Source: Dehalococcoidia bacterium
GTDB lineage: Bacteria; Chloroflexota; Dehalococcoidia; SM23-28-2; RBG-16-64-32
Length of the DNA: 61,873 nucleotides
Direction: 5' to 3'
NCBI GenBank assembly: GCA_035542855.1
Contig: DATKKM010000062.1
Coordinates: 1-61,873 of the forward strand
In this document: positions 2,789 through 55,604 of the stretch, piece after piece
Position numbering within the stretch: position 1 is the first letter of the stretch
Layout of the letters: each line of letters starts with the position of its first letter
The notes under the pieces: generated by a model
What the model saw: the letters and a program-made list of their open reading frames with translations, nothing else
Database searches by the model: none
What the model was told of the DNA's origin: nothing
Program-made: the position numbers and the translations under genes

Positions 2789-2795
2789 TCGTGCT

Positions 2796-3479: not shown

Positions 3480-3519
3480 CGCCGATTTAATCGCCGCCCG
3501 ACGGATTCTGCACAAGTAG

Positions 3520-3536
3520 TCAACCTGACCTTGAGG
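3520..3536 (+). promoter_or_regulatory. TCAACCTGACC motif upstream of ugd
   Basis: agTCAACCTGACCttgagg, 75 nt upstream of the ugd ATG. The 11-mer is identical to the unit at 43105-43115 (minus-strand sense). Confidence 0.45.
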
Positions 3537-3594
3537 CCTGCCGCCTAGCATCGTTGGCAAGAACGCCACCGAAGTAGGGGGTAAACCTGGCCCA

Positions 3595-10222: not shown

Positions 10223-10244
10223 CGAACTGTTTCCCCACGCGGAA

Positions 10245-10261
10245 TCAACCGTGAATCAACG
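10245..10261 (+). promoter_or_regulatory. Two direct hexamer repeats at 11-bp period upstream of the GT4 operon
   Basis: TCAACCgtgaaTCAACG, at -81/-70 from ATG 10326. Confidence 0.45.
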
Positions 10262-10325
10262 GACAAACCTTAATCTTCTATTGGAAGTTGCGAGCAGCGG
10301 ACACGACATAATGAGCGGAGAACGT

Positions 10326-19823: not shown

Positions 19824-20212
19824 GACGCGGTACCACCGCGCCGGGTTACAGTAATCCTCAAGCCCCAGGAAGTAAACACGGGAAGAATTTCATTCCTTAC
19901 ACACTGAGGGGGACTTATCCAGAAAACCAGGCAGATAATCTGTCACGCAAAACGGACCCATGCTGCTACCCTAAGCGAATGGACTGAGGGACACAACGTC
20001 CATAACATCAGAGCCAGACAGCTTATGGTAAGAAGCGAAAGCATTAGCAGGCAGTGCGGAAGAGTGGGGCAGGTGGGGTCCTGCGCCGCGCCAACAGCGG
20101 GCTCCTGGCCATCAGGATTGACGGAGCACGGCCAACCCGGCGGCCGTCTTGCTGTAACAGCTCCCAGTCTCCCGCGTCTATTCCGTGTAGTCCTGCAGAA
20201 GGAGAGTTACGC

Positions 20213-34034: not shown

Positions 34035-34143
34035 GCTTGTGCTCCAAGACACCATTTTGTTAGCTCCCGTTCTTCCCGGGCGCACCATAGATGCGGATGT
34101 CTATCGCGCGCGCCACCTCACTACTGATTCCGTCATTCTCGTT

Positions 34144-40400: not shown

Positions 40401-40665
40401 AGAACGCGGCTGTGGAACCGGCCGCGCCGCCATCCGCCTGCGCGCTGCCGCCGCTGACTGAGACAGAGCCGCCAGTCCACGTCTTCTGCGTCCAGAGTGA
40501 CGAGTCCATCACCGAACCGAGGAACAGGTCGTCCATGGCCGGGGCGAGCCGCACTTCGCCGCCGGCGTCTTCCGTCACTGCGGTCCCTGAGAGGTCGCCC
40601 AGCGCGAAGTCGGCTCCGGTGGTGTGGAACGTGGTCGTAACCGTGTTCTGTGGGCCGGATTCGCT
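37405..40665 (-). repeat. Three ~0.9-1.2-kb coding super-repeats (approx. 39750-40665, 38580-39470, 37405-38290) separated by FN3-like units (approx. 39470-39750, 38290-38575)
   Basis: Read from the protein-level three-fold repetition. Boundaries are approximate. Confidence 0.7.
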
Positions 40666-43044
40666 TGTCGTTGTGAACGTTCGGTCGCTGCTGTTCGCCG
40701 TGTTGCCCGCCGCGTCAGTGCTCGTCACCTTGTAGTGGTATGTCGTGGACGGCGCCAGGCCGCTGACCTGCACAGAGTGCGTTGTCGTGGGGCCGGGGAC
40801 AAGCGGAGTTGTCGTGCCGTAGGAGCTTGTCAGTCCGTAGGACACCTGGCTGCTGGAGCCTTCGTCGGTCTGCCAGGTGATGGTGGCGCCGTCGTCAACG
40901 ATATTCGTCGCCGCGATGTTGGAGATAGTCGGCGCCGTGGTGTCTTGCTTGATGACCTTGATGCCTTCGCCTGGCAGCTCAACGTTGCCGTTGGAGTCTG
41001 TGGCGCGGCTCATGATCTGAAACACGCCGCTCGAAGGAAGCGACCAGTTGTACGACCAGCTCGTCGTGCCGGAAGCGTTGGCCCAGGTCTGGCCGCCGTT
41101 GGTGGAGACCTCAACCTTGGACACAGAGCCGCCGTTGGCGGACGCCGTCCCGTGGATGGTGTAGCTGCTGCCGGAAAGCGTCTGCCCGGCCGTGGGGTCA
41201 GTGATTGTCGAAGTGGGGGCGACCATCTCGGCCGTCGTGTTCACGTTGACCGTGCGCCCGTTGCTGAACGGAGTCGTGTTGAGCGCGTTGCGCACGGGGG
41301 TGCTGCCGCTTCCCGTGAAGATGTAGTACTGCGTATCGATGTCGCTGGCGCCGGTGAAGGTCACCGACTCCACGTTCGTGCCGGTGTCGAAGCTAGCGCT
41401 GGCCAGCGACGAAGTCGCCAGGGCCCGGGCGTACTGTGCCTCGCGGTCGTACGTGACGTAGATCGGGTTGTACGACGAGACATTCGACGTGATACTGCTC
41501 AACTCGGTTGACCAGGTGCTGGGCGAGACGTTGGCCAGCTCGTACTCGTGCAGGAACAACGTGGCCGGGACCATGGAGTCGAACGCTGTTTTGAGCTGTG
41601 TTGTGCCGGTCGCGATCACGTCGCTCGCAGCGCGGTTGGCCGTCAAGTCGTAGCTGCTGCCGCGGACCTCGGTGAGGAAGTCGAAGAACGTCCCGTTCAA
41701 CGGGTTGCCCGGGGCGATGTTGAGCCAGTCCGCGATGTAGACGTTGTAGAACTGGTTGGTGTTCGTGCCCGGCAGCCCGTACGTGCGATACGGGCCGATC
41801 CACAACTGCGGGCTGGCGTCGCTGTAGGGGTAGCCGGGAAGGTTCGTCGTGGAGACGTATTGCACGCCGCGGGCCGCCAGCTCCTCGTAGACGTTGCTGC
41901 CAGACTCGTAGTAGTGGAAGACCACTACTTTGGACGGCGTGATCCCGTACGTTGCGAAGAACTCGTCCTGCAGCGCGAAGTTCGCTGCGACTTGATTATC
42001 GGTGAGGTTCTGCCCGCTCTGGTGGTTGAAGTAGAAGAACTGTTGGTCCGCAAAGGAGTGAATGGACGCCGTCGCCGAACCATCGTTGATCAGGTCACGC
42101 AGGCGGTAGGCCTTGGTCGGCGTGTAGTAGTTGAAGAAGATCGGGAGGAGCGGCCTGAAGCCGTACTGGTTGGCGATGTCCACGTAAGAGAAGTTGCTGC
42201 TGCCAAGGGCGTCGCCGGTGGCGTCATCCACGCGCATCGAGACCAGCGGCGGCATGCCGCGCAGCACGAACGGCTTGCGCGCCGCCCAGACCAGCCCCCG
42301 CCAGACCAGGTCGTCCATGCCCTGGAACTGCCCGACGACGGCGTTGTTGATCCAGGTGTCGCTCGTCCACTGCACGGCGCGGCCGGAGCCGTACGTCGTC
42401 ACCACCATCAGCGGGCTGCCGCCGACGCTTGCCAGCGTCGTCACGTCGCCCGGCGTCGTGATGATGTCTCCCTGCATCGGGTTGCGGACGGTGTAGGAGG
42501 CAGGCGCCGTTTGCGCCGCGGTGATGTAGTGGCCGGACGAAGGGACCGATATCGAAGACTGCGTGCTGTAGCTGCCCGCGTAGCCGAACCCGAAGATCGC
42601 ATCCGTGAACGAGTAGCGGCTAGAGTTGCCGCCGGTGGCCAGGTCGCCATCGACGCTGAAGAAGCCGCTGCCCGCGTTGACCGCGGAGGAGATGTTCGAC
42701 ATCTCGCTGCCGCTGAGGTAACTCCCGCTGGTGTCCAGGCCGGTGTGGCCGACGATGATCAGCTGGTAGTTGGAGATGTTGCTCGTGATCGAAGTCGTCG
42801 AAATGTCGATCGTGTCGTAGGGAACGCCGAACTGCTTCAGGTACGTCTGCAGCCGCTGCTGGTACTGCGAATAGGACGGCGACTGCGAGTTGACGAGGAC
42901 GACCGCATTGGAGCGGACAGTGGCCGCCTGGCTGTCCCGGCCGCCCAACATGGCGATGATCCCCACCACCAGCAGCAGTGCGGCGAGTATTGGCGTCTTC
43001 CAGTTCAATCCGATTTTCAAAGCCGAACCTTTCCGGACATGCAT
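37405..43044 (-). CDS. Giant secreted protein (1879 aa): ~600-aa N-terminal region of unknown function, Ig-like domain, FN3-like repeats, three ~300-aa LamG/ConA-like + beta-sandwich super-repeats
   Basis: Signal peptide KTPILAALLLVVGIIAMLGG. Same FN3-like repeat type as 26766-34034 (DTTAPTISNIAATNIVDDGATITWQTDEGSSSQVSYG). Three-fold repeated blocks TTAADFALGTLSGTAVTEDGGGEVRL...GTQF.YYVDG.LVAT.NGFS..VKAW.SDY.NGGQK. Confidence 0.85.
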   Translation of the reverse strand: MHVRKGSALKIGLNWKTPILAALLLVVGIIAMLGGRDSQAATVRSNAVVLVNSQSPSYSQYQQRLQTYLKQFGVPYDTIDISTTSITSNISNYQLIIVGHTGLDTSGSYLSGSEMSNISSAVNAGSGFFSVDGDLATGGNSSRYSFTDAIFGFGYAGSYSTQSSISVPSSGHYITAAQTAPASYTVRNPMQGDIITTPGDVTTLASVGGSPLMVVTTYGSGRAVQWTSDTWINNAVVGQFQGMDDLVWRGLVWAARKPFVLRGMPPLVSMRVDDATGDALGSSNFSYVDIANQYGFRPLLPIFFNYYTPTKAYRLRDLINDGSATASIHSFADQQFFYFNHQSGQNLTDNQVAANFALQDEFFATYGITPSKVVVFHYYESGSNVYEELAARGVQYVSTTNLPGYPYSDASPQLWIGPYRTYGLPGTNTNQFYNVYIADWLNIAPGNPLNGTFFDFLTEVRGSSYDLTANRAASDVIATGTTQLKTAFDSMVPATLFLHEYELANVSPSTWSTELSSITSNVSSYNPIYVTYDREAQYARALATSSLASASFDTGTNVESVTFTGASDIDTQYYIFTGSGSTPVRNALNTTPFSNGRTVNVNTTAEMVAPTSTITDPTAGQTLSGSSYTIHGTASANGGSVSKVEVSTNGGQTWANASGTTSWSYNWSLPSSGVFQIMSRATDSNGNVELPGEGIKVIKQDTTAPTISNIAATNIVDDGATITWQTDEGSSSQVSYGLTSSYGTTTPLVPGPTTTHSVQVSGLAPSTTYHYKVTSTDAAGNTANSSDRTFTTTSESGPQNTVTTTFHTTGADFALGDLSGTAVTEDAGGEVRLAPAMDDLFLGSVMDSSLWTQKTWTGGSVSVSGGSAQADGGAAGSTAAFSNDLAFEARATLGTDSWQQLGIGTDLDGLSGNSRAVFSTASGGQVYARTSVNGVDTFTPLPGLTNSPHTYKIARSGTQFLYFVDGSLVATHNGFSGSVKAWISDYSNGGQKVSVDWLRILPFAFLSGTYESPRIDTGAPGVITTIAWHGATPSGTTLTVRTRSSTNGTSWSSWSSPVSSGGAISSPSARYLQYQVTLASSDSSTTPELDDVTLSGSPPPVIISNVAVTNITNNSATVSWTTNQPTDGVVNYGLTSSYGSSATDPAGMASSHSVSLTGLAQGTTYHYQVTSSAGGGNSAQSNDATFTTAVPGTGGALFQTTAADFALGTLSGTAVTEDGGGEVRLTPALNDLFLGSSIDSGRWTTKVWTGGSVIASGGSAQADGSAIGSNASFSGDVVFEARATLGTDSWQQLGLGTDLDGSAGNSRAVFSTRNGGGVYTRTSINGSDTWTALSGLSNAPHTYRIERTGTQFRYYVDGTLVATNNGFSSAVKAWVSDYGNGGQKTSADWVRVTPFSTLSGTFESAIVDTGAPGAVTTISYHGATPNGTSLAVRTRTSSNAANWSAWSNPTASGATITSPAARYIQYQLTLTSNSSSVSPEIDDVGFGGGTPPVITGPTVSNITSSSATVSWSTDLSTDGVVSYGLTSSYGSSATDPAGFLTNHSVTLTGLSSGTVYHYQVTSTTNGGASAQSNDATFTTSVSTISTPQTTAADFQSGVLSGTAISEDSGGEVRLAPALNDIFSGGSLNGSLWSVSNWTGGSATVSGGNVTLNGNGIGSQATFSAGAVFEGTATFTGESWQFFGLASDLDGSNGGNRAGFTTGPSGTGMYARTSINNVDTFTAIAGNYLGSSHTYRVEWASSVVRYYIDGTLVVTQNQSVPGPLKAWASDYANSGNVLTAGWLRVTPYAASGTYLSGVFDAGSGSSFATITYGSTTPAGTSVQMRTRASTDGINWSAWSNPVASGGAITSAALRYLQYQITLTTSDTAQTPLVDSVALAH

Positions 43045-43133: not shown

Positions 43134-44309
43134 CTACCTAAATCCCCCATGGATCGCGCGCCGGGACACCCGTTTGTATACGCCGATCACCCCTTCCGCC
43201 AGGTTGTCTTCTGAGAAGCGCTCATGCACCAGCTGGTAGCCGGATTCGGCGAGGTGATCGCGCAGTTCGGCGTCGGTGAGAATCTCGCCGACGGACCGCG
43301 CCAGCGCCCCAACGTCCCCCGGGGGAACGACCAGTGCGTGCTCCCTGGGAACGACGGTCTCCGGCACCATGCCAACCGCTGTCGTCACGGAGGGGATGCG
43401 CATCGCCATCGCCTCCAGGAGCGTGTACGGCCCGCCCTCCCAGAGGGACGGCATCACGAAGACGTCCAGCGCAGACAGCAGGCGGGGAATGTCCTTGCGC
43501 TCGCCCGTGAAGATCGTCTGCTGGCCGATCCCCAGCTCGCGCGCTTGCGCTTCCAGGCGCGGGCGGAGATCGCCGTCGCCGACGACGAGGAAGCGAGAAG
43601 CAGGGCAGCTCGCCGCGAGCTGCGCGGCCATCTCCAGGAACTGCGATATGCCCTTGCGCTCCTCCGTCAGCCGGGACACGACCCCAATCAGCGGCGACCC
43701 CGCAGCGACGCCGAGTTCCGCCCTCGCCCCTTCACGGTCACCCGCCGCCGGATCGAAGCGGCCGAGGTCGACGCAGTTGTGGACGGTGAAGAACCGGGCC
43801 GCGTTTCTGCCCAGGTCACGGGTGTGGTACTCGGCGTTCTGGCCTGAGACACAGATCACCGCGTCCAGGCCATGGTCCTTCACGCGCAGCCACAAGCGGT
43901 CCTTCCAGGGCGGCACTTCCTCCAGCGGTTGGTGCTCCGTCCGCACGAAGCACCGGATTCCCGCAGCGCGGCCTGCCAGCATCGGTAGCTCGCCGCGGAA
44001 GGGGCCCGTGAGGTGCAGGTGGAGGGTGCCGCCGCGGTAGTTCTGGAGGAGCCGCTCCAGGTCGCGCAGGCGGCCCACCTTGGCGATGGCGCCCCTGGCG
44101 TCGTCCAGGGCGTGCACCTCGACGCCCTCGGCCTCGCAGGCCTCACGCAGCGGAGCGATGACAGGGTCCGAAGAGCAGATCAGGCTCGTCCTGTAACCGC
44201 GCCGGCGCAGCCCACGCCCCAGGCTGACGATGTGCTGCTCCATCCCGCCCATCATCCAACTGTTGGTGAAGAGGACCACCGGGCCCAGGCCCGGCTCTGC
44301 GTCTGACAC
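43134..44309 (-). CDS. Glycosyltransferase family 4
   Basis: PVVLFTNSWMMGGMEQHIVSL...VFVMPSLWEGGPYTLLEAMAMRIPSVTTAVGMVPE. The ORF-track start (45020) runs antisense through the divergent GT4 gene and is rejected. GTG 44309 (alternatives 44318, 44321) is the likely start. Confidence 0.75.
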   Translation of the reverse strand: MSDAEPGLGPVVLFTNSWMMGGMEQHIVSLGRGLRRRGYRTSLICSSDPVIAPLREACEAEGVEVHALDDARGAIAKVGRLRDLERLLQNYRGGTLHLHLTGPFRGELPMLAGRAAGIRCFVRTEHQPLEEVPPWKDRLWLRVKDHGLDAVICVSGQNAEYHTRDLGRNAARFFTVHNCVDLGRFDPAAGDREGARAELGVAAGSPLIGVVSRLTEERKGISQFLEMAAQLAASCPASRFLVVGDGDLRPRLEAQARELGIGQQTIFTGERKDIPRLLSALDVFVMPSLWEGGPYTLLEAMAMRIPSVTTAVGMVPETVVPREHALVVPPGDVGALARSVGEILTDAELRDHLAESGYQLVHERFSEDNLAEGVIGVYKRVSRRAIHGGFR

Positions 44310-44323
44310 ATCCACCACGATAT

Positions 44324-44348
44324 GGTTGCGACGTTGCCGGACGGTTGA
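44324..44348 (-). promoter_or_regulatory. Three CAAC(C/G) hexamers in the divergent GT4/GT4 intergenic region
   Basis: Sense strand TCAACCgtccgGCAACGtcGCAACC, with 11- and 8-bp spacing. Confidence 0.3.
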
Positions 44349-44456
44349 GCGCCGGTGTAGCTTCCGGGCGCGGGAATGTGGCGCGAACGGGCAGCGGTGC
44401 GCCTCTACCGGCGCGCGACAGCGCTCGCAACCTCCCATATACCATGATGGCTGAAT

Positions 44457-45623
44457 ATGGGAGCTGTTGTGTCTAATCGGCCGCTGCGGGTGCTGTTCTA
44501 CCCGTTCCTCTTCCTTCCTGAGGCCTGGAACGGGATGGACGAGCACATGCGCCTCCTCAGCCGCTACCTTGACCCGGCCCGCTTCGAGCTTCTCGTGATC
44601 GAGCACGAGGGCGACGGGCCGCAGACGCGCACGCTGGCCGAGCGCGCCGGCATCAAGTTGCTCGCAGCGCCGCACTCGCCCGGAGCCGGGGCCGCCGCGA
44701 AGGTGCGCGGCCTGCGGCGCCTCTTCTCGCAAGAGAAGATCGACATCCTCCACATCCACAGCCCCGCGGCCGGCGGCCAGGCCGCCCCGGCTCTCGCCGC
44801 CAGGCTCGCCCGTGTGCGCGCCACGCTGGCGACGTATCACCAGATTCAGTCCCGCACGCTGCCGCGCCGGACGCGGCTGATCAACGGCCTCACCCACCGC
44901 TTCCTCGTCGACGCGACGGTTGCTGTCTCGCGCGATGTCGCCGCGTCGCTGACGCAGCGCACAGGGGTGCCGAGCGGACGTATGCTCGTCGTCCACAACG
45001 GCATCGAGATCGAAGCCCACGCACAGCCGTCTGCGCCACCGCCGGCCGGCGAGGTGCGCCTGGCGTACTTCGGACGGCTGTCAGAGGAGAAGGGGGTCGC
45101 TGACTTGCTGCGTGCGCTCGCTGTTCTGGCGCCCCGCTGCCCGCAGGCGCGCACTTGGATCGCCGGCGAAGGGCCGGAGCGGGCGGACTTGGAGCGCCTC
45201 GCCAGGAAGCTCGACATAACCGGCGTGGTGGAGTTCCTCGGTTTCCGCAGCGACGCGCGGGAGCTGATGGCGCGGGCCGACATCGTCGTCCACGTCCCGC
45301 GCTATGAAGGGTTCGGCCTCGTCCTGCTGGAGGCGATGGCTGAGGGCAAGCCGGTCATCACCAACGACGCGCCTGGCGGGATGTCCGAAGTGGTGGTCGA
45401 CGGCGAGACGGGAATCGTCGTGCCGGCCGGCTCGGAGCGCGATCTCGCCGGCGCGCTGGCCCGGCTGATCGAAGACGGTGACGAGCGGCTTCGCCTGGGG
45501 AAGAACGGGCGCGAGCGGTGTCTCAGCGAGTTCTCAGCTGAAGTGATGGCGCGGCGAACGGCGGAGGTCTACGAGGCGGTGGTCACTCGTCCGCGCCGGC
45601 TCCCGTCCGCTTACCGGCTGTAG
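44457..45623 (+). CDS. Glycosyltransferase family 4
   Basis: LRVLFYPF...DILHIHSP...VVHVPRYEGFGLVLLEAMAEGKPVITNDAPGGMSEVVVDGETGIVV. Confidence 0.85.
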   Translation: MGAVVSNRPLRVLFYPFLFLPEAWNGMDEHMRLLSRYLDPARFELLVIEHEGDGPQTRTLAERAGIKLLAAPHSPGAGAAAKVRGLRRLFSQEKIDILHIHSPAAGGQAAPALAARLARVRATLATYHQIQSRTLPRRTRLINGLTHRFLVDATVAVSRDVAASLTQRTGVPSGRMLVVHNGIEIEAHAQPSAPPPAGEVRLAYFGRLSEEKGVADLLRALAVLAPRCPQARTWIAGEGPERADLERLARKLDITGVVEFLGFRSDARELMARADIVVHVPRYEGFGLVLLEAMAEGKPVITNDAPGGMSEVVVDGETGIVVPAGSERDLAGALARLIEDGDERLRLGKNGRERCLSEFSAEVMARRTAEVYEAVVTRPRRLPSAYRL

Positions 45624-46782
45624 CGGAAGCGGCAGGCACGGCGCCGGCGCCGTTCTGGGCCCTGCGTCCGAACCTGGTCGCCCGGTGGAGGAGAGCGCCC
45701 AGCTTCTCCGTGCGGCGGCCCATCACCAGCAGCGAAGGCAGCGCGCCGCGCGGACCGTCCCACGGCACGAACTGCACCGCGCGCCGCCAGCGCCCCACGC
45801 GCAGCTCCATCACCTCTGACTCGCGCCAGAGGAGCCGGTGGACGACGCTCCGGCCGGACGCGGCGGCCAGGCGCTCCGCCTCCGGCGGCAGCTGCGTGCC
45901 CAGGAGCATGGTCAGCAGGCGCAGCGTGTACCCCAGCGACGACGAAACGCCCTCGCGCTCTGCCGTCTCCAGGAGCCAGGGCCAGTCCAGATCGGGGCCG
46001 CGCAGGCGCAGGATCAGGTCGATGTCCTTGAACCAGAACAGCCCGCCGAACCCGTGCCGGCTGAGGTGGACGCAGAGGAAGAGGAAGAGATCGTTGAGGG
46101 CAAGGACGCGCGTCTCGTGCCCCTCCAACGTCCAGGCCTCCGCGCGTTGCCAGACATCGCTCAGGAACCGCGGCTTCACCCCGATCTGGAAGTGATCGTA
46201 GTGCACGTCCAGTGAGATGTGCGTCTCTGAGTGGGTGAACGCCGTCTCATATGGCCACTCGCAGGTGCCGTGGTTTGCCGCTTCCAGCCCGCCGTGGTCT
46301 TCGGCCACCCTGTAGCCCAGGTCTGCGCACACTTCCATCGCCCGGGAGTGGGTTTCGATTGGCAGAAGCAGATCAATATCGCCGTAAGGGCGGAGCGCCG
46401 GGTCCGGGTAGAAGCGGTTGGCTATCGCCGGGCCTTTCAAGAGGACGCTGGGGACATCGTGGGCGCTGAGCGCCTTCTGGACGCGGACCAGCTCCCCGCT
46501 AAGCATCAGCCCCTGGAAGGCGGCGCGCATGGCGTTGTTGCGGATGACGCCCAGCGTCTTTGCCGGAACCGCTTCGCTCAACCCAGAGGCGGCGATGCTC
46601 TGCAGAACCCAGCCGGACATGCGGTGCTGGACGCAGTGGAAGGCCACCTTGTCCCAGTCCCGCACCGCCGACGCCGCCGCGGCCAGGCAGCCGTTTGCCG
46701 CCGGCCGCTCTCCCCGGACGGCGAGGGTGACGAACGCCGCTTCCGGTGACTGCCGCGAGGTGAAAGGTGACCGCATCTTCAT
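45583..46782 (-). CDS. NTP_transf_5-type 'uncharacterised nucleotidyltransferase' (lasso/RiPP-associated)
   Basis: YGDIDLLLPIETHSRAMEVCADLGYRV, and a position at the end of the lasso operon. Its 3' end overlaps the convergent GT4 gene by 41 nt. Confidence 0.65.
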   Translation of the reverse strand: MKMRSPFTSRQSPEAAFVTLAVRGERPAANGCLAAAASAVRDWDKVAFHCVQHRMSGWVLQSIAASGLSEAVPAKTLGVIRNNAMRAAFQGLMLSGELVRVQKALSAHDVPSVLLKGPAIANRFYPDPALRPYGDIDLLLPIETHSRAMEVCADLGYRVAEDHGGLEAANHGTCEWPYETAFTHSETHISLDVHYDHFQIGVKPRFLSDVWQRAEAWTLEGHETRVLALNDLFLFLCVHLSRHGFGGLFWFKDIDLILRLRGPDLDWPWLLETAEREGVSSSLGYTLRLLTMLLGTQLPPEAERLAAASGRSVVHRLLWRESEVMELRVGRWRRAVQFVPWDGPRGALPSLLVMGRRTEKLGALLHRATRFGRRAQNGAGAVPAASATAGKRTGAGADE

Positions 46783-46788
46783 CGAACC

Positions 46789-47595
46789 CTAGTAGTGCGA
46801 AAGCGACCCGTTGGCCTTGGCGGAACGGACGGCCAGCTCGAACACGAGCAGGCTGATAGGCAGAAGCAGGGCGAATCCGGCCAGCACCGCGATATCGCCT
46901 GCCGTCGCGGAGTTGCTGCTGCCGTCCGCCAGGAGCGCATCCCGCAGCGCGGACATGGTGTGTGTTAGCGGCAGCAGCGGCGAGATCTTCTCCAGCCAGC
47001 CCGGCAGAAGTGATGTTGGGTAGAGCACGCCGCTCACCAGCACCGATGACGTGATCAGGAACGGACTGATCGGGTCGGACTGCTTGAAGCGCAGCACGAA
47101 AGACCCGGCGAGGATGCCGAGGCCGCCGAAGATGGCCACGGTAAGCGCCAGCACCACGATGGCGGTAAAGATGCCGCCTGCACGCAAATCGACGCCCAGC
47201 AACAGCCCGCCGACAACCAGCGAGACGGCCAGCCGGATAGCCGCGAAGGTCAGGCCGTACAGCGATGAACCGAAGAGGAACATGGCGCTGGACGTGCGGG
47301 ACTTGAGCATCACCTCCAGTGTCCCGGTGACCTGGGCGCCGCGGATGGATGATGTGAACTGGCCGGCCGCCGTTTGCGCAAAGAGCAGTGCAGACGCCCC
47401 GATCAGCGCGAAGCCGAAGTAGTCGTTGCCGTAGGCGGCCAGCGAGTCCGGCTGGCCCTGGTCAACCAGTTTGCCGACGAAGTTCAATGTGATCAGGCTG
47501 AAAACCAGCATCACGATCGTCTGGATGAAGCTCAGCCGGTAGCTCAGGGCGATCCGGAAGTCCCGCTGCAGGAAGGCCACGGACTTGGCGATCAT
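46789..47595 (-). CDS. ABC-2-type transporter permease
   Basis: Six predicted TM helices, ABC-2 layout, ATGA-type overlap with the ATPase gene. Confidence 0.75.
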   Translation of the reverse strand: MIAKSVAFLQRDFRIALSYRLSFIQTIVMLVFSLITLNFVGKLVDQGQPDSLAAYGNDYFGFALIGASALLFAQTAAGQFTSSIRGAQVTGTLEVMLKSRTSSAMFLFGSSLYGLTFAAIRLAVSLVVGGLLLGVDLRAGGIFTAIVVLALTVAIFGGLGILAGSFVLRFKQSDPISPFLITSSVLVSGVLYPTSLLPGWLEKISPLLPLTHTMSALRDALLADGSSNSATAGDIAVLAGFALLLPISLLVFELAVRSAKANGSLSHY

Positions 47596-48599
47596 ACGGT
47601 CACCTCCCGTGACGTCAGGCGGTCAACCAGCTCCTTGAGCGGCGCCGCCCGGGAGAAGGCGCGGATGGTGACGCCCGCCGCCGTAATCGCCGTGATCAGC
47701 TCCGGCAGGGACATCTCTTCGTTGTCGCACCAGACTTCCAGCTCGTGGTGGCCGTTGGCCCGGCTCAGCGTGGCGTCGCGTACGCCCGGCAGCTCCCGCA
47801 GTCTCGGCAGCTCCAGTGCGCTCGCGTCATCGATGACGATGGTCAGTCCGCGCAGGCCATGCATCGCCTGCTGCAGGTCTGACGTTCTCAGCTCGGCCTG
47901 GATCTTGCCCTGCACCAACACAGCGGTACGATCACAAACAGCCTCCGCTTCCTCGGCGCGGTGAGTGACCAGGATGATCGTCATCCCGTGCTCCGTGGAG
48001 AGGCTCCGGACCAGTGACCAGATCACGCGGCTCTCCGTCGGGTCCACGCTGCGTGTCGGCTCGTCGAGCAACAGCAGTTGCACTCGGGACAGGAGCGCGC
48101 GGGCCAGCGCGAACCGCTGGCGGACGCCGGCAGAGTACGTGGCGAACGGCTGCTCGATATAGCCGCCGAGGCCGAGGCGTTCGCTCAGCTCATCGATGCG
48201 GCTGCGGGCCGCGCGGCCGTGCAGGTCGTCCAGGGCGGCGAAGAACTCCAGGTTCTCGCGCCCGGTGAGGCGCCAGTAGAAGCTGCGGTCATCGGTGAAG
48301 GAATAGGCGGTCATCGAGCGCACGCGTCCACCGGCCCGGGTCACGTCCTGCCCGCAGACCCTCGCCACGCCGGAATCCGGCTGCACGAGTCCGGCCAGCA
48401 CCTTGAGCAGCGTCGTCTTGCCGACGCCGTTCGATCCGAGCACTCCGACAACCTCGCCCGGTTCCACGGCCAGGGAAACGCCGTCAAGCACGCGCTTCGT
48501 CGGCCGCTTGCCCCGGTTGCGGATCATCTGGCGCAGCGACGTGTTCAGGGGATATTCCTTGATGACGTCGCAGACTTCAACGATTGACATCACACACAC
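47592..48599 (-). CDS. ABC transporter ATP-binding protein
   Basis: Walker A GSNGVGKTT, signature YSAGVRQR, Walker B LLLLDEP, plus a C-terminal extension. Confidence 0.9.
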   Translation of the reverse strand: MCVMSIVEVCDVIKEYPLNTSLRQMIRNRGKRPTKRVLDGVSLAVEPGEVVGVLGSNGVGKTTLLKVLAGLVQPDSGVARVCGQDVTRAGGRVRSMTAYSFTDDRSFYWRLTGRENLEFFAALDDLHGRAARSRIDELSERLGLGGYIEQPFATYSAGVRQRFALARALLSRVQLLLLDEPTRSVDPTESRVIWSLVRSLSTEHGMTIILVTHRAEEAEAVCDRTAVLVQGKIQAELRTSDLQQAMHGLRGLTIVIDDASALELPRLRELPGVRDATLSRANGHHELEVWCDNEEMSLPELITAITAAGVTIRAFSRAAPLKELVDRLTSREVTV

Positions 48600-49592
48600 T
48601 CAAACTGCCGAAGCTGCCGGCGCACCGGCGAGAATGGCGCCCGTCAGCTCACCCAGCCGGTCCAGGGACCGCGGCGCCAGGACGGCGTTGACCTGCGTTT
48701 GTTCGACAATGCGAGAGAAGACTTCCATCTGGCGGCCCTGCAACTCCGGCTCGCGCGCCAGCTGGCGGGCGTTGTAGGAGTTGCCAATGAGGCGCAGCAG
48801 CGCCTCGGGGCCGGTGAGCCGCTTCACTTCAACGTCGCGCTCTGGAAGCGCGGGAAGCAGGACGCTGATCGAGGCCAGCGGCGCCGGCTCGTCGTACGTG
48901 CCGCCGAGGTCGTGCGCCGTCACCACGCGCTTCTCCAGCCAGGAGGCCAGGCGCGGAGACTTCTCCCACTCCGTGCCGGGGTACAGGCGGCTGAGCGTCT
49001 CCGGGACCAGCTTCATGGTGGCCGGGCCAGGGAGCACGGTCACCTCCGGCCCGCTGGCGTCCAGTGCGATGCACCCGTCAGTTAGCAGCTTGCAGCCGCG
49101 CGCCATGAGGGCTGCTGCGGTGGTCGACTTGCCGAAAGTGGATGGCGCGACAAGAGCGTAAGCCTTGCCTTCGTGGACGACAGCGCTGCCGTGCAGGCAG
49201 ACCAGCCCCTGCAGCTGCAGCGCGAACCCCAGGACGGGTCCCGCCGCGGCGGCGGCGATGTCGGCCAGGTTCTCGCTTTCCGGCGCCCAGTAGATGCGGG
49301 CGCCGTCCGGTGGCACCAGGTAGTTGGCCAGGCCGGGATAGTGCCAGTGGTAGCGGTCGCCGTCCCACTTCAGGGAACAGACCAGCTGGCCGGCGTGGTC
49401 CAGTGCGTCGTACACGGTGCGGGCGTCATCGGCCGGCTCGGGCCGGCGGGACATGCGGACGACGATTGACGCCTCGCTCTTCTTCACCTCGCTGGAGGGC
49501 AGGAAGAGAGAGAGGCGGAGGTCGCTCACGACGTTCCTGCCAAAGACTCGGTATTGGTGACGTGAAACTCGTCTAGCGGTGCGCAATCTCAT
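48600..49592 (-). CDS. HPr-kinase/phosphorylase-like protein (lasso-peptide kinase family)
   Basis: CLHGSAVVHEGKAYALVAPSTFGKSTTAAALMARGCKLLTDGCIAL (HprK C-terminal P-loop block). Located directly downstream of the precursor ORF. Confidence 0.7.
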   Translation of the reverse strand: MRLRTARRVSRHQYRVFGRNVVSDLRLSLFLPSSEVKKSEASIVVRMSRRPEPADDARTVYDALDHAGQLVCSLKWDGDRYHWHYPGLANYLVPPDGARIYWAPESENLADIAAAAAGPVLGFALQLQGLVCLHGSAVVHEGKAYALVAPSTFGKSTTAAALMARGCKLLTDGCIALDASGPEVTVLPGPATMKLVPETLSRLYPGTEWEKSPRLASWLEKRVVTAHDLGGTYDEPAPLASISVLLPALPERDVEVKRLTGPEALLRLIGNSYNARQLAREPELQGRQMEVFSRIVEQTQVNAVLAPRSLDRLGELTGAILAGAPAASAV

Positions 49593-49665
49593 TCACCCAT
49601 CTCTTTGCCGGGCCGGGCTTCGCGTAAGAAGTGTGTCCCGCGGCCACAAAACTAGGGTAGGAAGA

Positions 49666-49833
49666 CTATTCGCCGCTCAGGTTGCCGGGCGGCGGCGTGC
49701 CGCCGCTGTCCTTGAAGACGACCAGGTAGTCGGCTGGGCCGTGCTCCTTGTTGAAGTCAAAGCCCGCCGTAACCGCCCGAATGTCACCGTATGCCTGCAG
49801 AGCAGGCTTCTGGTATGGCCTTTTCTCTCCCAT
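49666..49833 (-). CDS. Lasso-peptide precursor (55 aa), not in the ORF track
   Basis: Hand translation: MGEKRPYQKPALQAYGDIRAVTAGFDFNKEHGPADYLVVFKDSGGTPPPGNLSGE*. AAGGGGGG lies 8 nt upstream. Leader has YxxPxL...T(-2). Core starts with Gly1 and has Glu7. It sits in the 255-bp gap between the cyclase and kinase genes. Confidence 0.8.
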   Translation of the reverse strand: MGEKRPYQKPALQAYGDIRAVTAGFDFNKEHGPADYLVVFKDSGGTPPPGNLSGE

Positions 49834-49847
49834 ATACACATCCCCCC

Positions 49848-51743
49848 TTACGTTTGTTTTAGTCGGTCAACCGTGTGACCGCGGGACACCGAATTTAAGT
49901 CCAGCCACAGGCCTGCGGTGATCGCCCGCCAGAGCCCATGCCACCACGGGTGGCGACGTGACTGGTAGTCTGCCAGCTCCCCGTTCAGGAGCCGGTTGTT
50001 GATGTACGGGAGCTGGCTCAACGGGCCCGTGAGCGCTCTGTCCACGCGGCCCCGTTCCTTTTCCAGCAGACCCTTGTTCATAAGCTGATTGAATACGCCG
50101 TATCCCCTGCGCATAGTCACCAGTTCCGGCAGGCGGGATTTCATCGCCGCCCGCATCAGAGCCTTGGTCTGGCCGGCGTCGCGGTGCACCCAGTCCGGCA
50201 CGCGGTGCACGGCGTCTATCACGCGCAGGTCCCACAGCGGAGACCGTATTTCCAGGCCGAACTGCGATCCGGCCCACCGTTCCCGCCAACCGGCCAGGGG
50301 AACCATATCCCGCATGTGCATCCGCCAGAACCGGCGATAGGCGCGTCCGCGGGCCCAGGACACCGCTGGCAGGGGCAGATCCAGCGCGCCCTCCAATCCC
50401 AGTTGCTTCATGGCGGCCGGATCCACCCAGCACGGTAGCGGCTGCAAGGAAGGCCGGCCCCGCACCCTGCGGTACTGCTCTCTGATGCTGCTGGGTACAA
50501 GCGGCAGGACGGCGTTGTTCATGAGCAGCGCACCCAGCGGGTAATCGAAGCGCCGGCTCCAGGCCTTTGCCTCGTTCAGGGCGCGGACAAAGTGCCCACG
50601 GGTGAGGAGCACTGCGATGTAAGCGTTTGTGCCGGTGAAGAATTCATCTCCCCCGGCGCCATCAATGAGAACGTCCACGCCCTCTGCGGCCCCTGCCCGC
50701 GCCAACTCCACCATCAGCGGCGCCTGCATAGGCACGTTTGGCTGATCAAAGGCTTCGTCGGCCAGCCTTGCTGAGCTGAGGCTCCAGCATTCGTCCGCAT
50801 CCACTTCGGTGACCGGCATGCCGAGCCGGCCGGCCACGGCCCTGCTGTACTCGCGTTCATCCAGCCCGTCGAGTGTGGCCGAGTAAGCGCTCAAGGCTCG
50901 CACGTCCGGGCTGAGTTCGGCCGCCACCGATGCGACGTAGGAGGAGTCCAGGCCGCCGCTGAGAAGAATGGCGGCCCCGGAGTTCGAACGGAGCACAGCC
51001 GCGACGGCTTCCTGGAACGCGGCGTCTACCGCCTCCACGTAGTCTTCGCGCCGCTTGAGCTTGAGCTCCGGCAGCGGGCGCGGCCGCCAGTATTCGCGGA
51101 CCGTGATTCCGTCTTCGTCCGCCAGCAGGTAGTGAGCCGGTGGCACCTCGGACACAGCGCGGTAAGGCGTCGAGCCGGGCTTCGGCGGGGCGCCGGTGAG
51201 GTGACGGGCCAGGAACTCCTGGTCGATTTCGTCGCGAATGCCTGCCGCCAGCAGCTGACGCGGCTCCGAACCGATGGCCAGCCCACCGGCTGTGCGCGCA
51301 AAGACCAGGGTGCGGAATCCCTGCTGGTCGCGCGCGGCGAAGAGCCGCCGCCTGGGTCCGTCCCACAGGGCGAAAGCGAAGTTGCCGAGCATGTGCTCAA
51401 GGCAATTGACGCCCCACCTGTCGTATGCGTGCACGATGAGGTCCGCGTCCGTCAGGACCGGCACGTCCGGGTTGTGCAGGGCCAGCTTGTTGATCAGGTC
51501 CCGGCGGTTGTCGATGCGCCCATCAAGCGCGATCTGATAGCGGCCGCCGAGCGTGATGAGGGGCAGCCCTTCGGAGCGGGCTTCCGGCGTCGTGGGCAGC
51601 AGCCGCTGGCCCAGCGCGATTTCGGCGCCTGTCCAGGTGCTGACGATCGGCCCGCGGCGCTCGATCTTGTCGAGCAGGATCTGGAGGACGTCCTTCAGGG
51701 CGTCCGGCGAAAGGCGGCCGCTGACGGCGGCGATCCCGCTCAT
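49848..51743 (-). CDS. Lasso-peptide cyclase (asparagine synthetase B-like, C protein)
   Basis: 631 aa. N-terminal Ntn-like domain, PP-loop AILLSGGLDSSYVA. ATGA overlap with B2. Confidence 0.85.
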   Translation of the reverse strand: MSGIAAVSGRLSPDALKDVLQILLDKIERRGPIVSTWTGAEIALGQRLLPTTPEARSEGLPLITLGGRYQIALDGRIDNRRDLINKLALHNPDVPVLTDADLIVHAYDRWGVNCLEHMLGNFAFALWDGPRRRLFAARDQQGFRTLVFARTAGGLAIGSEPRQLLAAGIRDEIDQEFLARHLTGAPPKPGSTPYRAVSEVPPAHYLLADEDGITVREYWRPRPLPELKLKRREDYVEAVDAAFQEAVAAVLRSNSGAAILLSGGLDSSYVASVAAELSPDVRALSAYSATLDGLDEREYSRAVAGRLGMPVTEVDADECWSLSSARLADEAFDQPNVPMQAPLMVELARAGAAEGVDVLIDGAGGDEFFTGTNAYIAVLLTRGHFVRALNEAKAWSRRFDYPLGALLMNNAVLPLVPSSIREQYRRVRGRPSLQPLPCWVDPAAMKQLGLEGALDLPLPAVSWARGRAYRRFWRMHMRDMVPLAGWRERWAGSQFGLEIRSPLWDLRVIDAVHRVPDWVHRDAGQTKALMRAAMKSRLPELVTMRRGYGVFNQLMNKGLLEKERGRVDRALTGPLSQLPYINNRLLNGELADYQSRRHPWWHGLWRAITAGLWLDLNSVSRGHTVDRLKQT

Positions 51744-52198
51744 GCTGCGTCCTCCGCCATGACTGCGGCGTCCGGGAGGCGCTCCGTGCCCTGGAGCACA
51801 GTGAAGACGGCGCAGCGGTCTCGCGAATCGTTGACGGGTTCGCCGGCGATCTCGATCCAGGCGTGGGCCTGGATGCCCTGTTCGCCGTTGCGAACGCCGA
51901 AGCGCAGGCGGCTGTTCATTCCCCTGCGGCGCAGCATCCAGCTGAGAGCCAGAGAGCGCTGCAGGCAGCGGGCCTTGCGCGGAAGCCGCCTGGCAACCGC
52001 GCCAACGTCTCGCGCCAGCAGGTACGCCTGCTGAATGTCTTCTGGCTTGCCAGTGTCGCGGGCTAGCGCGTGGTCTGTCCAGCGCCGCAAGAGAACGCGC
52101 TTGGGCAGCGCGAAGCCGGCAGCCACCAGGCAGAGGCAGATGGCAGCTTCCAGTTTGGCGCGCAATCGCGCCGGGCGGCGCAGTTTAATGAGCCCCAC
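51740..52198 (-). CDS. Lasso-peptide leader peptidase B2 (transglutaminase-like Cys protease)
   Basis: CLQRSLALSWMLRRRGMNSRLRFGV....GIQAHAWIEIAGEPVND (Cys/His catalytic blocks). GTG 52198 overlaps the B1 3' end by 14 nt. Alternative start: 52261. Confidence 0.8.
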   Translation of the reverse strand: MGLIKLRRPARLRAKLEAAICLCLVAAGFALPKRVLLRRWTDHALARDTGKPEDIQQAYLLARDVGAVARRLPRKARCLQRSLALSWMLRRRGMNSRLRFGVRNGEQGIQAHAWIEIAGEPVNDSRDRCAVFTVLQGTERLPDAAVMAEDAA

Positions 52199-52481
52199 CG
52201 TTCGTCCTGTTGGGCTTGATGAGACCCTTGGCCCGGAGCGACTCAAGGAAGAACTCGACATCCTCTCTGACGTCTGAGCCGTTGATCTCGAAGTTCTCCC
52301 TCACGCTCTCGCAGATGCTGGGCAAGGAAGAGCCTGCCTCCAGCATGCCCCAGATGTGCGTGCCGACGTTGTTCAGCCCGTAGTACTCGCCTGTCTCCAG
52401 GTCAAGCATCACGGCCTCGCCATCGACGATCCTGTGAAGAACGCCGGGCTTAACCTCGAACTGTGAGGCTGATGCCTCCAT
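52185..52481 (-). CDS. PqqD-family RiPP recognition element (lasso B1)
   Basis: IVDGEAVMLDLETGEYYGLNNVGTHIWGML...EDVEFFLESLRAKGLI. ATG 52481 has AGGAAGGA upstream. Confidence 0.85.
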   Translation of the reverse strand: MEASASQFEVKPGVLHRIVDGEAVMLDLETGEYYGLNNVGTHIWGMLEAGSSLPSICESVRENFEINGSDVREDVEFFLESLRAKGLIKPNRTNGGAH

Positions 52482-52780: not shown

Positions 52781-53803
52781 TTAGGAAGAGCAGCCGGAGG
52801 CGTCATCGACGGCGATCGTGAGCAGAAGGCTCAGCGCATCGCGCGGATCCACCCTGTGATCGCAGTTGAGGTCGCCCTTGATCGCATTGCCGGAGACGCT
52901 GCCGATGTTGCGGCACCCCGTCGCGGCCGGCACCCCGCCGACGTACTTCAGAAGCAGGCTGAGGTCGCCGGTGTTGACCTGGCCGTTGCAGTCCATATCG
53001 CCAAGCAAGTTGGCCGGGGCTGTCGGCGTTAGCGTGGGCGTTGGCGTCATCGTGCCCGTAGGCGTCGGCTGGAACGCCTCCGTTGGCGTCGGAGTCGGCG
53101 TGTTCGTCGGCCCCGGAGGCGGAGATGCCACCTGGGTGGGCGTTGGCGTTGCCGTCCCGCCGCCGCTGCAGTTCGCGTTCGCCGCCACCTGCGCGTTCAG
53201 CACGTTCGTGACGCTGATTATGTTGCCGGCGTCATCGGTCGCCGTGACTCCCGTAAGCGTGAGGTTGCTGACCCCGGTGCCCGCCTGGCCCTGCAGCGTG
53301 ACACGCGCAAGCACGCCGGGTCCGACTTCTGAGGCGCCCGACGGCTCGATGCCCTTGCCGAAGTCCAGGGCGCTCAGGCCCGCAGTGCCGTCGCTGGACG
53401 TCGTATCGCCGAAGGGGATCACTGTGCTGCCACTGGCCTGGGCCAGGAGCTGATTGTAGTCGACGGCGGTGACGTGCACCTTGCTGGCGTCGTAGTTGAG
53501 GACGAACTGAAAGCCGGAGAGACCACGGTCGGAAGCCACCTGGTCCTCGAAGATGTCGATCGCCAGAGTCTGCCCGTTGTTCACGCGGTTGCAGGTGTCC
53601 CTGGTCGTCGCCACGCCCACCTGCGTTCGCGCCGTGTTGCCGGACGTGTTCATGTCGATGCCGAGGTTGGTTATGGGGCTGGTGGGCGCCGCTGTGGCGT
53701 GCTGGCCGCCGCGGACGAAGAGAACCAGCGCGATCAGGCCAAGGGCGACGATTGCGAGGTTGATTCCGGCCTGGGCGACTCGGCGGGGCGGGATTCTGAT
53801 CAT
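52781..53803 (-). CDS. Membrane-anchored cohesin-like + (TP)n linker + type-I-like dockerin protein
   Basis: AAGAGGTG + 6 nt + ATG 53803. Signal-anchor INLAIVALGLIALVLFV. Cohesin-like block [18 protein letters not shown]...GVLARVTLQG...LTLTGVTATDDAGN. Dockerin loops DMDCNGQVNTGD and DLNCDHRVDPRD. Confidence 0.65.
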   Translation of the reverse strand: MIRIPPRRVAQAGINLAIVALGLIALVLFVRGGQHATAAPTSPITNLGIDMNTSGNTARTQVGVATTRDTCNRVNNGQTLAIDIFEDQVASDRGLSGFQFVLNYDASKVHVTAVDYNQLLAQASGSTVIPFGDTTSSDGTAGLSALDFGKGIEPSGASEVGPGVLARVTLQGQAGTGVSNLTLTGVTATDDAGNIISVTNVLNAQVAANANCSGGGTATPTPTQVASPPPGPTNTPTPTPTEAFQPTPTGTMTPTPTLTPTAPANLLGDMDCNGQVNTGDLSLLLKYVGGVPAATGCRNIGSVSGNAIKGDLNCDHRVDPRDALSLLLTIAVDDASGCSS

Positions 53804-53993
53804 GAGTAACACCTCTTGAGCATGGGGCGCGTGCTTGCGCGGTGCTTACACAAACTAGACGTTGAACCGTGGGAGGCGTTACAAGATGCGCTACCCGGCG
53901 CTCCTGAGAAGCGCATCTGAACCGGACTAGTCACAGCCGGTTGCACCGCCAACCCCACGACTCTTGCGCATTAAAGAGTGTTCGGCGGTCCCT

Positions 53994-54127: not shown

Positions 54128-55225
54128 CTAACCGCCAAGCTTCAGGAGGTTCGAGATGGAAGGCGCCTTTGGCGTCGCGTGGGCGCTGGTCAGCTTGCAC
54201 CTGGGACTCCTGTGACCGATTGCCCATAACCAGCCGCCCAGCCAGCCGCGGAACCTGCACGTCTGTGGGGAGACGATCGGCGTGGGCTTCGGCGTCGGCG
54301 TTGCGGTCGGGCGCGGCGTGGCGCCGCCGACTTGCCTCGGCGTGGGCGTGGGGGTAGGAGTCCTGGTTATGGCCGGCGTGGCCGTCGGCGTTGGCGTTGG
54401 CGTTGGCGTTGGCGTAGGACCGATCGTCGACGTCGGCGTGGGCGTCGGCGTCGAAGAGGCCGGAGCGATCGTCGCCGGTTTCGTCGGCGTTGGCGTTGGT
54501 GTCGCGGCCGCTGTGGCGGTAGGCGTTGGCGTCGGCGACGGCGTGCGCGTCGGCGTGGGTGATGGCGTGCGCGTCGGCGTCGGCGATGGCGTGGCCGTCC
54601 CGCTGCAGCTGCTGTTCAAGGCCACCTGCGCGTTCACGATGGTCTGCACCGGTATCACTTCGCCGGCATCGTCCGTGACGGCCGTGCCTGTCAGCTGCAG
54701 GGTGCTGATGCCGGTGGACCCCGTCGGCGTGAGCGTGATCCGGGCCAGCAGCCCCGGGCCGGTCTCGGACGCGCCCGAAGGCTCGATCCCTTTTCCGAAG
54801 TCGATCTCGCTGAGGGAGGCCGTGCCGTCGCTGGAGGACGTTTCGCCGAAGGGGACGACGTTGCTGCCGCCGGCCTGGGCCAGGAGCTGGTTGTAGTCGA
54901 CGGCGGTGACCCGGACCAGGTTGCTATCGTAGTTGAGGACGAACTGGAAGCCGGAGACGCCACGATCGGACGGCACCTGGTCGGCGAAGACGTCCACAGT
55001 GCCGGCCTGTCCGCTGCTCAGAGCGATGCAGGGGTCGGGGGTGGTCACGTCCGTGCGGGCGGTGTTGCCCGACGAATTGGCGTCGATGCCGACTACCGAG
55101 ATCTGGCTGGATGAGACTGCGGTCGCGCCCTGGCCTCTGATGAGCAGGCCCAGCGTTAGCAGGGCGGCGGCGACGAAGGCCAGGTTCAGGAACGTCCGCA
55201 AAGTTCGGGGCGACAGTCTATTCAC
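54128..55225 (-). CDS. Membrane-anchored cohesin-like protein with very long (TP)n linker and no dockerin
   Basis: GAGAGGTG + 6 nt + GTG 55225. Signal-anchor [17 protein letters not shown]. Cohesin-like block [18 protein letters not shown]...[10 protein letters not shown]. About 120 aa of T/P-rich linker. Short Trp/Cys-rich C-terminus. Confidence 0.6.
54386..54412 (-). repeat. Hexanucleotide microsatellite (GGCGTT)x4 inside the (TP)n linker coding region
   Basis: gcgttggcgttggcgttggcgttggcg, embedded in ~330 bp of degenerate GGCGTN repeats (about 54290-54620). Confidence 0.7.
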
Positions 55226-55384
55226 GTGTGACACCTCTCTTGCATGGGGCGTGCGCCGAGGTGGGATGGTAAAGACTAGACGCGCAAGGCCGGGTCACGT
55301 TACATAACGCGAGAAGTTTACAGACGCCCGTACGCGAGCCGTGGTCACGCCGGGACGCTGCCGGAGCCTGATATCCAGCGGTCC

Positions 55385-55433: not shown

Positions 55434-55507
<74 letters not shown>

Positions 55508-55517
55508 GCCGGCGGCT

Positions 55518-55604
55518 TGGTGCCGAGGAGGGGATTTGAACCCCTACGCCCTTACGGGCACCGCCCCCTCAAGACGGCGTGTCTACCTATTCCACCACCT
55601 CGGC
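55518..55604 (-). tRNA. tRNA-Leu (GAG), class II with long variable arm
   Basis: GCCGAGGTGGTGGAATAGGTAGACACGCCGTCTTGAGGGGGCGGTGCCCGTAAGGGCGTAGGGGTTCAAATCCCCTCCTCGGCACCA. Anticodon loop TTGAGGG, A73, CCA encoded. Confidence 0.9.

Follow-up and report, generated by a model that had tools for sequence, protein, structure and literature searches.

The window considered here is a stretch of 61,873 nucleotides from a Dehalococcoidia bacterium of the Chloroflexota (assembly GCA_035542855.1, contig DATKKM010000062.1, positions 1 to 61,873), and the system in question is a set of eight genes on its minus strand which, by sequence, is a complete split-B lasso-peptide gene cluster, for a peptide that is synthesized ribosomally and modified post-translationally (RiPP). 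Three rules are applied to lasso peptides: cleavage of the leader falls two residues past a threonine, the α-amine so freed is the nucleophile, and the ring has 7–9 residues, with 7, 8 and 9 being the sizes of the known lasso rings. As far as the aligned precursors can tell, the family to which this cluster belongs cannot combine the T(−2) cut, the α-amine nucleophile and the 7–9-residue ring, and at least one of the three has to be broken. Our reading, to which we give a probability of about 0.75, is that this is a functional Chloroflexota lasso operon in which the family-invariant Asp12 would serve as the carboxylate, the register being set by a K-x5-D motif and not by the distance from the N-terminus. 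Lasso mining and engineering rest on the three rules, at least one of which must be broken by this family, whose precursors number at least 25 and whose enzymes are intact and under selection.

Precursor family and the K-x5-D motif

The precursor (MGEKRPYQKPALQAYGDIRAVTAGFDFNKEHGPADYLVVFKDSGGTPPPGNLSGE) is encoded between the cyclase gene C and the next large gene, with a ribosome-binding site GGGGGA, and divides into the leader MGEKRPYQKPALQAYGDIRAVTA and the core GFDFNKEHGPADYLVVFKDSGGTPPPGNLSGE. The leader register is Y-x2-P-x-L-x3-G-x5-T-x, in which Tyr and Thr are 15 residues apart in 29/29 precursors examined. With a cut two residues after the Thr, the Tyr falls at −17, the Pro at −14, the Leu at −12 and the Thr at −2, and this Y/P/L register relative to the cut is described in the literature as universal. 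The first residue after the cut is hypervariable, with 13 different amino acids found there (G, T, M, H, W, E, Q, F, S, R, I, V and D).

Twenty-five precursors of the clade were compared. Nine come from loci found through enzyme homologues (eight through the cyclase and one, L009, through the kinase) and are unbiased with respect to the core; P0002 comes from a word-index search with the precursor, which yielded one relative only, and the rest from an exhaustive hidden Markov model (HMM) search over 1.84 billion representatives that was run instead. The sole conserved acidic residue among the 25 is an Asp, which is found at core position 8, 9, 10, 11, 12 or 13. In 23 of them a Lys stands exactly six residues ahead of this Asp, mostly as K-x-[FWL]-G-x-x-D, and the distance of the motif from the leader Thr varies; within the unbiased set K-x5-D is present in eight of the nine. 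Lys6 and Asp12 are the motif residues of the window core, which additionally contains Glu7. Core positions 7–9 are free of Asp and Glu in 14 of the 25 precursors, and in some the choice of acidic residue is narrower still: the core of L094 (TILPGKKLGSPD...) has D12 as the single acidic residue in its first 16 positions, and the L095a/b core (M[PA]KNKTFGAGD...) has D11. The segment between Lys6 and Asp12, KEHGPAD, is thus the probable ring-forming region of the window peptide, judged by family conservation. The initial annotation had described the core as unrelated to those of the paeninodin and pseudomycoidin types and much longer; the first part stands, and the notable property is the ring register (Asp12/Lys6) rather than the length.

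The closest homologue is P0002. Its 19-residue tail is identical to that of the window peptide, its enzymes are 71–73% identical, and a 2-residue deletion in the N-terminal segment leaves Glu at position 5 and Asp at position 10; because of this, Glu7 is unlikely to be a conserved acceptor. A more ordinary explanation is that the window encodes a class II lasso peptide that is canonical throughout. B2 would cleave behind Ala23, and C would join Gly1 to Glu7 in a 7-residue ring, with 25 residues left as the tail. A Ser would be phosphorylated by the kinase and, as for pseudomycoidin, the phosphate would receive a sugar from the nucleotidyltransferase; K-x5-D would be conserved for target binding. 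The window core does carry the Glu7 that such a ring needs, 7-residue rings are within the known range, all of the enzymes are ordinary members of their families, and phosphorylation of an internal Ser is known (Ser3, by BsfK). The Glu is, however, not kept in the family, being at position 5 in P0002 and L009 and replaced by Asp6 in L007; the relatives without an acidic residue at 7–9 still have intact clusters; and close relatives with identical tails would need different ring chemistry. We regard the canonical explanation as unlikely on these grounds.

Two further features of the family concern the ends of the core. In L093 and P0149, which are one lineage, and in P0148, a second, a Cys in the spacer ahead of the motif is the only possible partner of a lone penultimate Cys at the C-terminus; relatives sharing the DCS C-terminus carry this partner in the tail instead. 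As the spacer Cys is the sole partner available, the spacer seemingly stays in the product. At the C-terminus itself, 17/25 precursors end in Ser, those of the window, P0002 and L007 in NLSGE, and that of L009 in PPPPAT. The family also includes a canonical G1–D8 precursor in L096, whose cyclase is nested within the same clade in a neighbor-joining (NJ) tree without support values.

Proposed ring closure

In the proposed pathway, and by homology, B1 would bind the YxxPxL leader, B2 would cut two residues past the conserved Thr, i.e., after Ala23, C would adenylate a core carboxylate and close the macrolactam, and the ABC-2 pair would export the product. The family comparison points to Asp12, not Glu7, as the carboxylate used, and to the invariant Lys six residues upstream, not the distance from the N-terminus, as what would fix the ring register. 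Less settled is the amine partner of the conserved Asp, for which we considered three candidates.

We tentatively rank first the ε-amine of Lys6, which would leave a short, free N-terminal arm. By our count the ring of a K(i)–D(i+6) lactam consists of 26 atoms, the same as in a Gly1–Glu8 ring and one more than in a Gly1–Asp8 ring, and a Lys ε-amine nucleophile would explain both the fixed spacing of K to D and the variable arm. The full form of this proposal, in which the conserved Asp and the upstream Lys ε-amine form a side-chain-to-side-chain macrolactam of 26 atoms, with a variable free arm that is disulfide-bonded to the tail in some members, is more doubtful. Were it true, both the ring chemistry and the topology would be new among lasso-type RiPPs, the chemistry of lasso cyclases would be wider than known in accepting a Lys side chain as nucleophile, and genome-mining tools demanding an acidic residue at 7–9 would miss the family.

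Ranked second by a small margin, and doubtful as well, is the α-amine of Gly1, giving an oversized 12-residue ring in the window peptide (8–13 residues across the family). The enzymology of such closure would be canonical, but the invariant Lys, the hypervariability of residue 1 and the free insertions and deletions inside the ring would go unexplained, and rings of this kind would require a very bulky stopper. If rings of 10–13 residues are indeed formed, a phospho-glycosyl C-terminus may be the stopper that keeps the threading, an idea raised for pseudomycoidin. The third candidate, the α-amine of the Lys itself after a non-canonical cut (a K1–D7 ring), is unlikely; a cut directly before the conserved Lys, seen at first as the simplest solution, was downgraded in view of the Thr fixed at −2 in all members and the pairing of the spacer Cys, although recognition by B2 would not be as assumed if the cut site were shifted in this way. 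A Glu or Asp at K+1 as the acceptor was rejected too, as the rings would be of 3–8 residues, too small in most members. Any of the three ring outcomes would alter heuristics based on an acceptor at 7–9 and would open up the RiPPs of an uncultured phylum.

Several points weigh against reading the conserved Asp, and the Lys ahead of it, as the ring register. The window core has Glu7, compatible with a canonical 7-residue ring in this member; the profile through which twelve of the added precursors were found held the K and D columns, so these twelve are biased toward the motif; the NJ cyclase tree has no support values; and to our knowledge a Lys side-chain nucleophile is without precedent among lasso cyclases. 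The kinase discussed below may still work with Asp-Gly at its active site. Finally, ring position, nucleophile and threading are all inferred from about 25 sequences of shared ancestry. Literature searches on rings of 10 or more residues, on Lys-linked lasso rings and on Chloroflexota lasso families found nothing relevant.

Kinase and nucleotidyltransferase

The kinase K had been called HPr-kinase-like in the initial annotation, which holds at the level of family and fold but not for the single sequence, which has no Pfam match and reaches 32.7 bits to TIGR04352 (HprK_rel_A). Its family profile matches the HPrK/P structure 1jb1 with E=2.3e-9, its relatives carry PF07475 and PF27840, and an AlphaFold (AF2) model with a predicted local distance difference test (pLDDT) score of 91.8 matches PEPCK and HPrK/P folds; on the strength of the profile match, the domains of the relatives and the fold, we take it to be an HPrK-like kinase. 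The start is most likely at 49592, which gives 330 aa instead of the 309 aa of the gene call, since the N-terminal YRVFG..SDL motif is conserved in relatives.

Lasso kinases have the motif H...GxxGxGKS...DD, changes to which lower activity. The window kinase has H134, GKST at 154–157 and D172-G173 (codons 49074–49079), so that a Gly replaces the second catalytic Asp; in the family, “LLtDDv” aligns to “LIADD” of the L. casei HPrK/P 1jb1. The DG is found only in the window kinase and its two closest homologues, P0004 (L007) and P0005 (L009), with DD in nearly all other relatives, and these DG kinases are exactly those paired with precursors without a C-terminal Ser. With the C-terminal Ser and a catalytic Asp lost together and the kinase still under selection, the case is a natural experiment on the roles of such kinases beyond phosphorylation.

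The same pair of losses could mark a decaying, non-producing remnant, with a dead kinase, a drifted precursor and no mature modified lasso peptide. The copy of the cluster in L009, in which C and K are frameshifted, would fit as well, though this may be long-read error. Several findings make a remnant very improbable: all eight open reading frames (ORFs) are intact; the ratio of nonsynonymous to synonymous substitution rates (dN/dS) against L007 is 0.16–0.23 for B1, B2, C and K, i.e., purifying selection; the precursor tail is identical among lineages whose enzymes are merely 70–76% identical; and many independent contigs carry one and the same peptide. The kinase gene in particular has a dN/dS of 0.18, like those of B1, B2 and C, which argues that it is not decaying.

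The N protein has kept its KGP...YGDIDLL motif (DxD) intact, together with all residues that are invariant among the five cluster-linked homologues. We infer that the tailoring has changed in the DG subclade, by a move to another site, by another catalytic arrangement or by a non-catalytic role for K. Phospho-(glycosyl) tailoring would then have either moved to an internal Ser/Thr, such as Ser30 in NLSGE, or weakened.

Comparison with known systems

Split B genes with a kinase and a nucleotidyltransferase had been recognized as the tailoring set of paeninodin and pseudomycoidin. The pair is indeed present, with the C-terminal Ser and the catalytic DD missing. The set is not confined to a few Firmicutes, as had been proposed: it also occurs in Proteobacteria and Bradymonadales, and in Chloroflexota metagenome-assembled genomes (MAGs) as a conserved unit of eight genes.

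The paeninodin (pade) and ThcoK/SyanK clusters share with the window the split B1/B2, the Asn-synthetase-like cyclase, the YxxPxL...T(−2) leader and an HPrK-like kinase adjacent to the precursor. Paeninodin-type kinases, which have the catalytic DD, phosphorylate the strictly conserved C-terminal Ser of the precursor, whereas the window precursor ends in SGE and its kinase has DG; the paeninodin core is also unrelated to the window core with its K-x5-D register. The pseudomycoidin (psm) lasso cluster has both a kinase, PsmK, and an uncharacterized protein of nucleotidyltransferase fold, PsmN. The phospho-Ser receives one or two hexoses from PsmN, whose D134/D136 pair is essential, and the resulting phospho-hexose C-terminus has been proposed as a lock for the peptide; window N keeps a DxD motif in YGDIDLL. 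PsmN is presumably a PF14907 member, like window N. The psm gene order is C-A-K-B1-B2-N-D, unlike B1-B2-C-A-K-ABC-ABC-N here, and psm is a Firmicute system for a peptide with a C-terminal Ser, in contrast with the Chloroflexota cluster. Export differs too, with a two-gene ABC-2 system in the window and a single ABC-type gene, psmD, in pseudomycoidin. The paeninodin exporter is a single fused ABC gene.

The Bsf system of Bradymonas sediminis is a case of a lasso kinase working where the C-terminus is not Ser, as BsfK phosphorylates the internal Ser3; B1 stimulates the kinase there, and N genes are present in some relatives. It has Ile at −2, a canonical G1–D8 ring and an intact H...GKS...DD, unlike the Thr at −2, K-x5-D and DG of the window. 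A Lys side-chain isopeptide, on the other hand, is known from the class V peptides lariocidin B and gelatinamin A, in which Lys2 and Asp8 are also six residues apart. In class V, however, a clostripain-like transpeptidase joins the Lys Nε to the C-terminus after the cyclase has made a normal ring from the N-terminus to Asp8, and no clostripain-like peptidase was found among the eight cluster genes or the ten flanking ORFs scanned.

Lastly, the HPr-rel-A (TIGR04352/TIGR04353) and SynChlorMet ScmC/ScmD systems combine a PqqD-family chaperone and an HPrK-related kinase, often with a nucleotidyltransferase, and matches to PF27840, ScmC, occur in relatives of the window kinase. Its 32.7 bits compare with a curated cut-off of 200 for HPr-rel-A, and those systems have no lasso cyclase or B2.

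Cluster layout

The eight genes, B1, B2 protease, cyclase, precursor, kinase, ATPase, permease and NTP_transf_5 protein, are tightly packed at 45583–52481 in the order B1-B2-C-A-K-ABC-ABC-N (Table 1). In the main the initial annotation was right about them: all eight ORFs lie in one direction on the minus strand at the positions it had assigned, the B1/B2 overlap of 14 nt and the ATGA overlaps of B2/C and of ATPase/permease are all read in the sequence, and the HMM cut-offs for PqqD and for B2, on which it had made the cluster depend, are passed (PF05402; NF033537 and PF13471), as the cyclase and N were likewise matched to PF00733 and PF14907 by HMM. B1 starts with ATG at 52481 behind the ribosome-binding site AGGAAGGA, and its best NCBIfam matches are the lasso PqqD models NF033536 and NF033530, both under cut-off. 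B2 starts with GTG and shows the CLQRS...HAW motifs in translation. The cyclase has the PP-loop SGGLDSS, translated as LLSGGLDSSY, and its best NCBIfam match is the lasso cyclase model NF033535 with 313.7 bits, under the exception-level cut-off of 525.

Table 1. Positions of the cluster genes, of the parts of the precursor and of the glycan genes that follow N.
Feature	Sequence	Position	Strand	Evidence
B1, PqqD-like leader-recognition (RRE) protein, 98 aa	Window	52185–52481	−	PF05402 63.7 bits (cut-off 23.4)
B2, transglutaminase-like Cys leader peptidase, 152 aa	Window	51740–52198	−	NF033537 lasso B2 83.5 bits (cut-off 33); PF13471 83.4 bits
C, Asn-synthetase-like lasso cyclase, 631 aa	Window	49848–51743	−	PF00733 E=1.3e-39; PF13537 (GATase domains)
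A, precursor, 55 aa plus stop	Window	49666–49833	−	NF033521 lasso leader 23.1 bits (cut-off 19)
Precursor leader	Window	49765–49833	−	
Precursor core	Window	49669–49764	−	
Lys6...Asp12 core segment KEHGPAD	Window	49729–49749	−	K-x5-D in 23/25 clade precursors
K, HPrK-like peptide kinase homologue, 330 aa	Window	48600–49592	−	Family profile and AlphaFold model
ATP-binding cassette (ABC) transporter ATPase (DrrA-like)	Window	47592–48599	−	PF00005 101.6 bits; TIGR01188 198 bits
ABC-2 permease (DrrB-like)	Window	46789–47595	−	PF01061 71.7 bits
N, NTP_transf_5 nucleotidyltransferase-fold protein, 399 aa	Window	45583–46782	−	PF14907 172 bits
Glycan genes after N	Window	43134–45623		
Glycan genes after N	L093	6687–9209		
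Glycan genes after N	L095	14690–17908		
Glycan genes after N	L097	11075–13010		
Glycan genes after N	P0006 locus			

A gap of 6 nt separates the permease and N genes. The spacing of the genes makes a single, co-transcribed operon likely. Scans for terminators and promoters gave no signal beyond shuffled background, and a candidate attenuator hairpin 3′ of the precursor gene was discarded, its fold energy being the same as that of shuffles (z=0.06). Horizontal transfer was likewise considered and rejected: the GC content of the cluster, 0.65–0.68, is the same as that of its flanks, and an integrase is absent from the window.

Relatives and distribution

Cyclases 100% identical to that of the window are found on metagenome contigs from ENA, JGI and Logan, and at least six independent metagenome contigs have a gene call for the identical precursor peptide, the word-index cluster counting 10. 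The cyclase clade is distinct (44–70% identity), ordinary lasso cyclases being around 30% identical, and its named members are proteins of Dehalococcoidia/Chloroflexota MAGs. A genome scan with the cyclase alignment, at one genome per GTDB species, gave one close locus only, L013 from a Chloroflexota MAG; the remaining 79 were set aside, being generic loci of the lasso or Asn-synthase kind whose precursors are canonical. Scanning metagenomes with the precursor alignment yielded nothing but the identical peptide and L012 (7736–7828), the latter a chance match of the leader pattern inside a 245-aa ORF. The order of the eight genes is kept in L013 and in L093–L098 (about seven metagenomic or MAG loci), as far as the contigs reach, and the eight genes are for this reason an evolutionary unit.

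Two of the related loci deserve separate mention. In L009 (4968–7689) both the cyclase and the kinase gene are broken by frameshifts, which probably reflect errors of sequencing and not pseudogenes, the contig name suggesting a long-read assembly. In L095 (about 9950–10686) three tandem precursor genes with differing cores lie between C and K, of which two end in Ser and one in SLSGGGAD, a second, independent C-terminal extension past the Ser.

Genomic surroundings

As the initial annotation had seen, the cluster lies between a glycan locus and cohesin-like proteins: the scan of flanking ORFs shows dockerin- and cohesin-domain proteins upstream and two family 4 glycosyltransferases (GT4) with sugar-modifying genes downstream. 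Glycan genes (GT4, a Polysacc_synt flippase and GT2) follow N in 5/7 loci, where the cyclases are about 50% identical, and are not found after N in L013 and L096. In the window, a GT4 gene on the plus strand (44457–45623) is convergent with N, whose 3′ end it overlaps by 41 nt. The vicinity of the glycan genes to N may have a functional basis in peptide glycosylation, or may be conserved synteny alone.

A second, stand-alone trio of PqqD, HprK and NTP_transf_5 genes adjoins the lasso cluster in L094, on the opposite strand (2391–4843); its nucleotidyltransferase is 53% identical to that of the window, and the trio resembles the NCBIfam “HPr-rel-A” system.

One may ask on this account whether K and N, together with a PqqD protein (B1 or another), form a separate module of the HPr-rel-A type that acts on another substrate, such as a glycan or a surface protein of the adjoining locus, and is merely syntenic with the lasso genes. 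The cyclase-free trio, the existence of such a system as defined by NCBIfam (TIGR04352/TIGR04353) and the glycan genes in most of the loci would all be in keeping with this. In every locus, though, K directly follows the precursor and the ABC exporter stands between K and N; the lasso precursor is the substrate of the homologous kinase of the paeninodin, pseudomycoidin and Bsf systems; and L013 and L096 retain K and N where there are no glycan genes. A separate module therefore seems to us a far-fetched explanation, and assignment of K and N to the lasso operon is retained.

Dockerin/cohesin proteins are unusual outside the cellulosome-forming Firmicutes. Those of the window, with Pro/Thr-rich linkers, are encoded at 52781–53812, 54128–55234 and 20054–22177, and a dockerin-like gene also stands ahead of B1 in L007 and L009. 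Just past the cohesin-domain gene, about 3 kb upstream of the cluster, are genes for tRNA-Cys(GCA) and tRNA-Leu(GAG) on the minus strand (55434–55604). Further away, the window encodes two large proteins of secreted type, one of 2440 aa (26766–34088) with a subtilase S8 domain, a glucose/sorbosone dehydrogenase, PKD and many fn3/purple-acid-phosphatase-N repeats, and one of 1879 aa (37405–43044) with fn3 repeats and a faint GH16 signal. Between them lies a gene for a 750-aa fusion of an NAD-dependent sugar epimerase/dehydratase and a DegT-type aminotransferase (34144–36396), which adjoins a GNAT acetyltransferase gene (36410–37273); the combination suggests synthesis of an acetamido-deoxy sugar.

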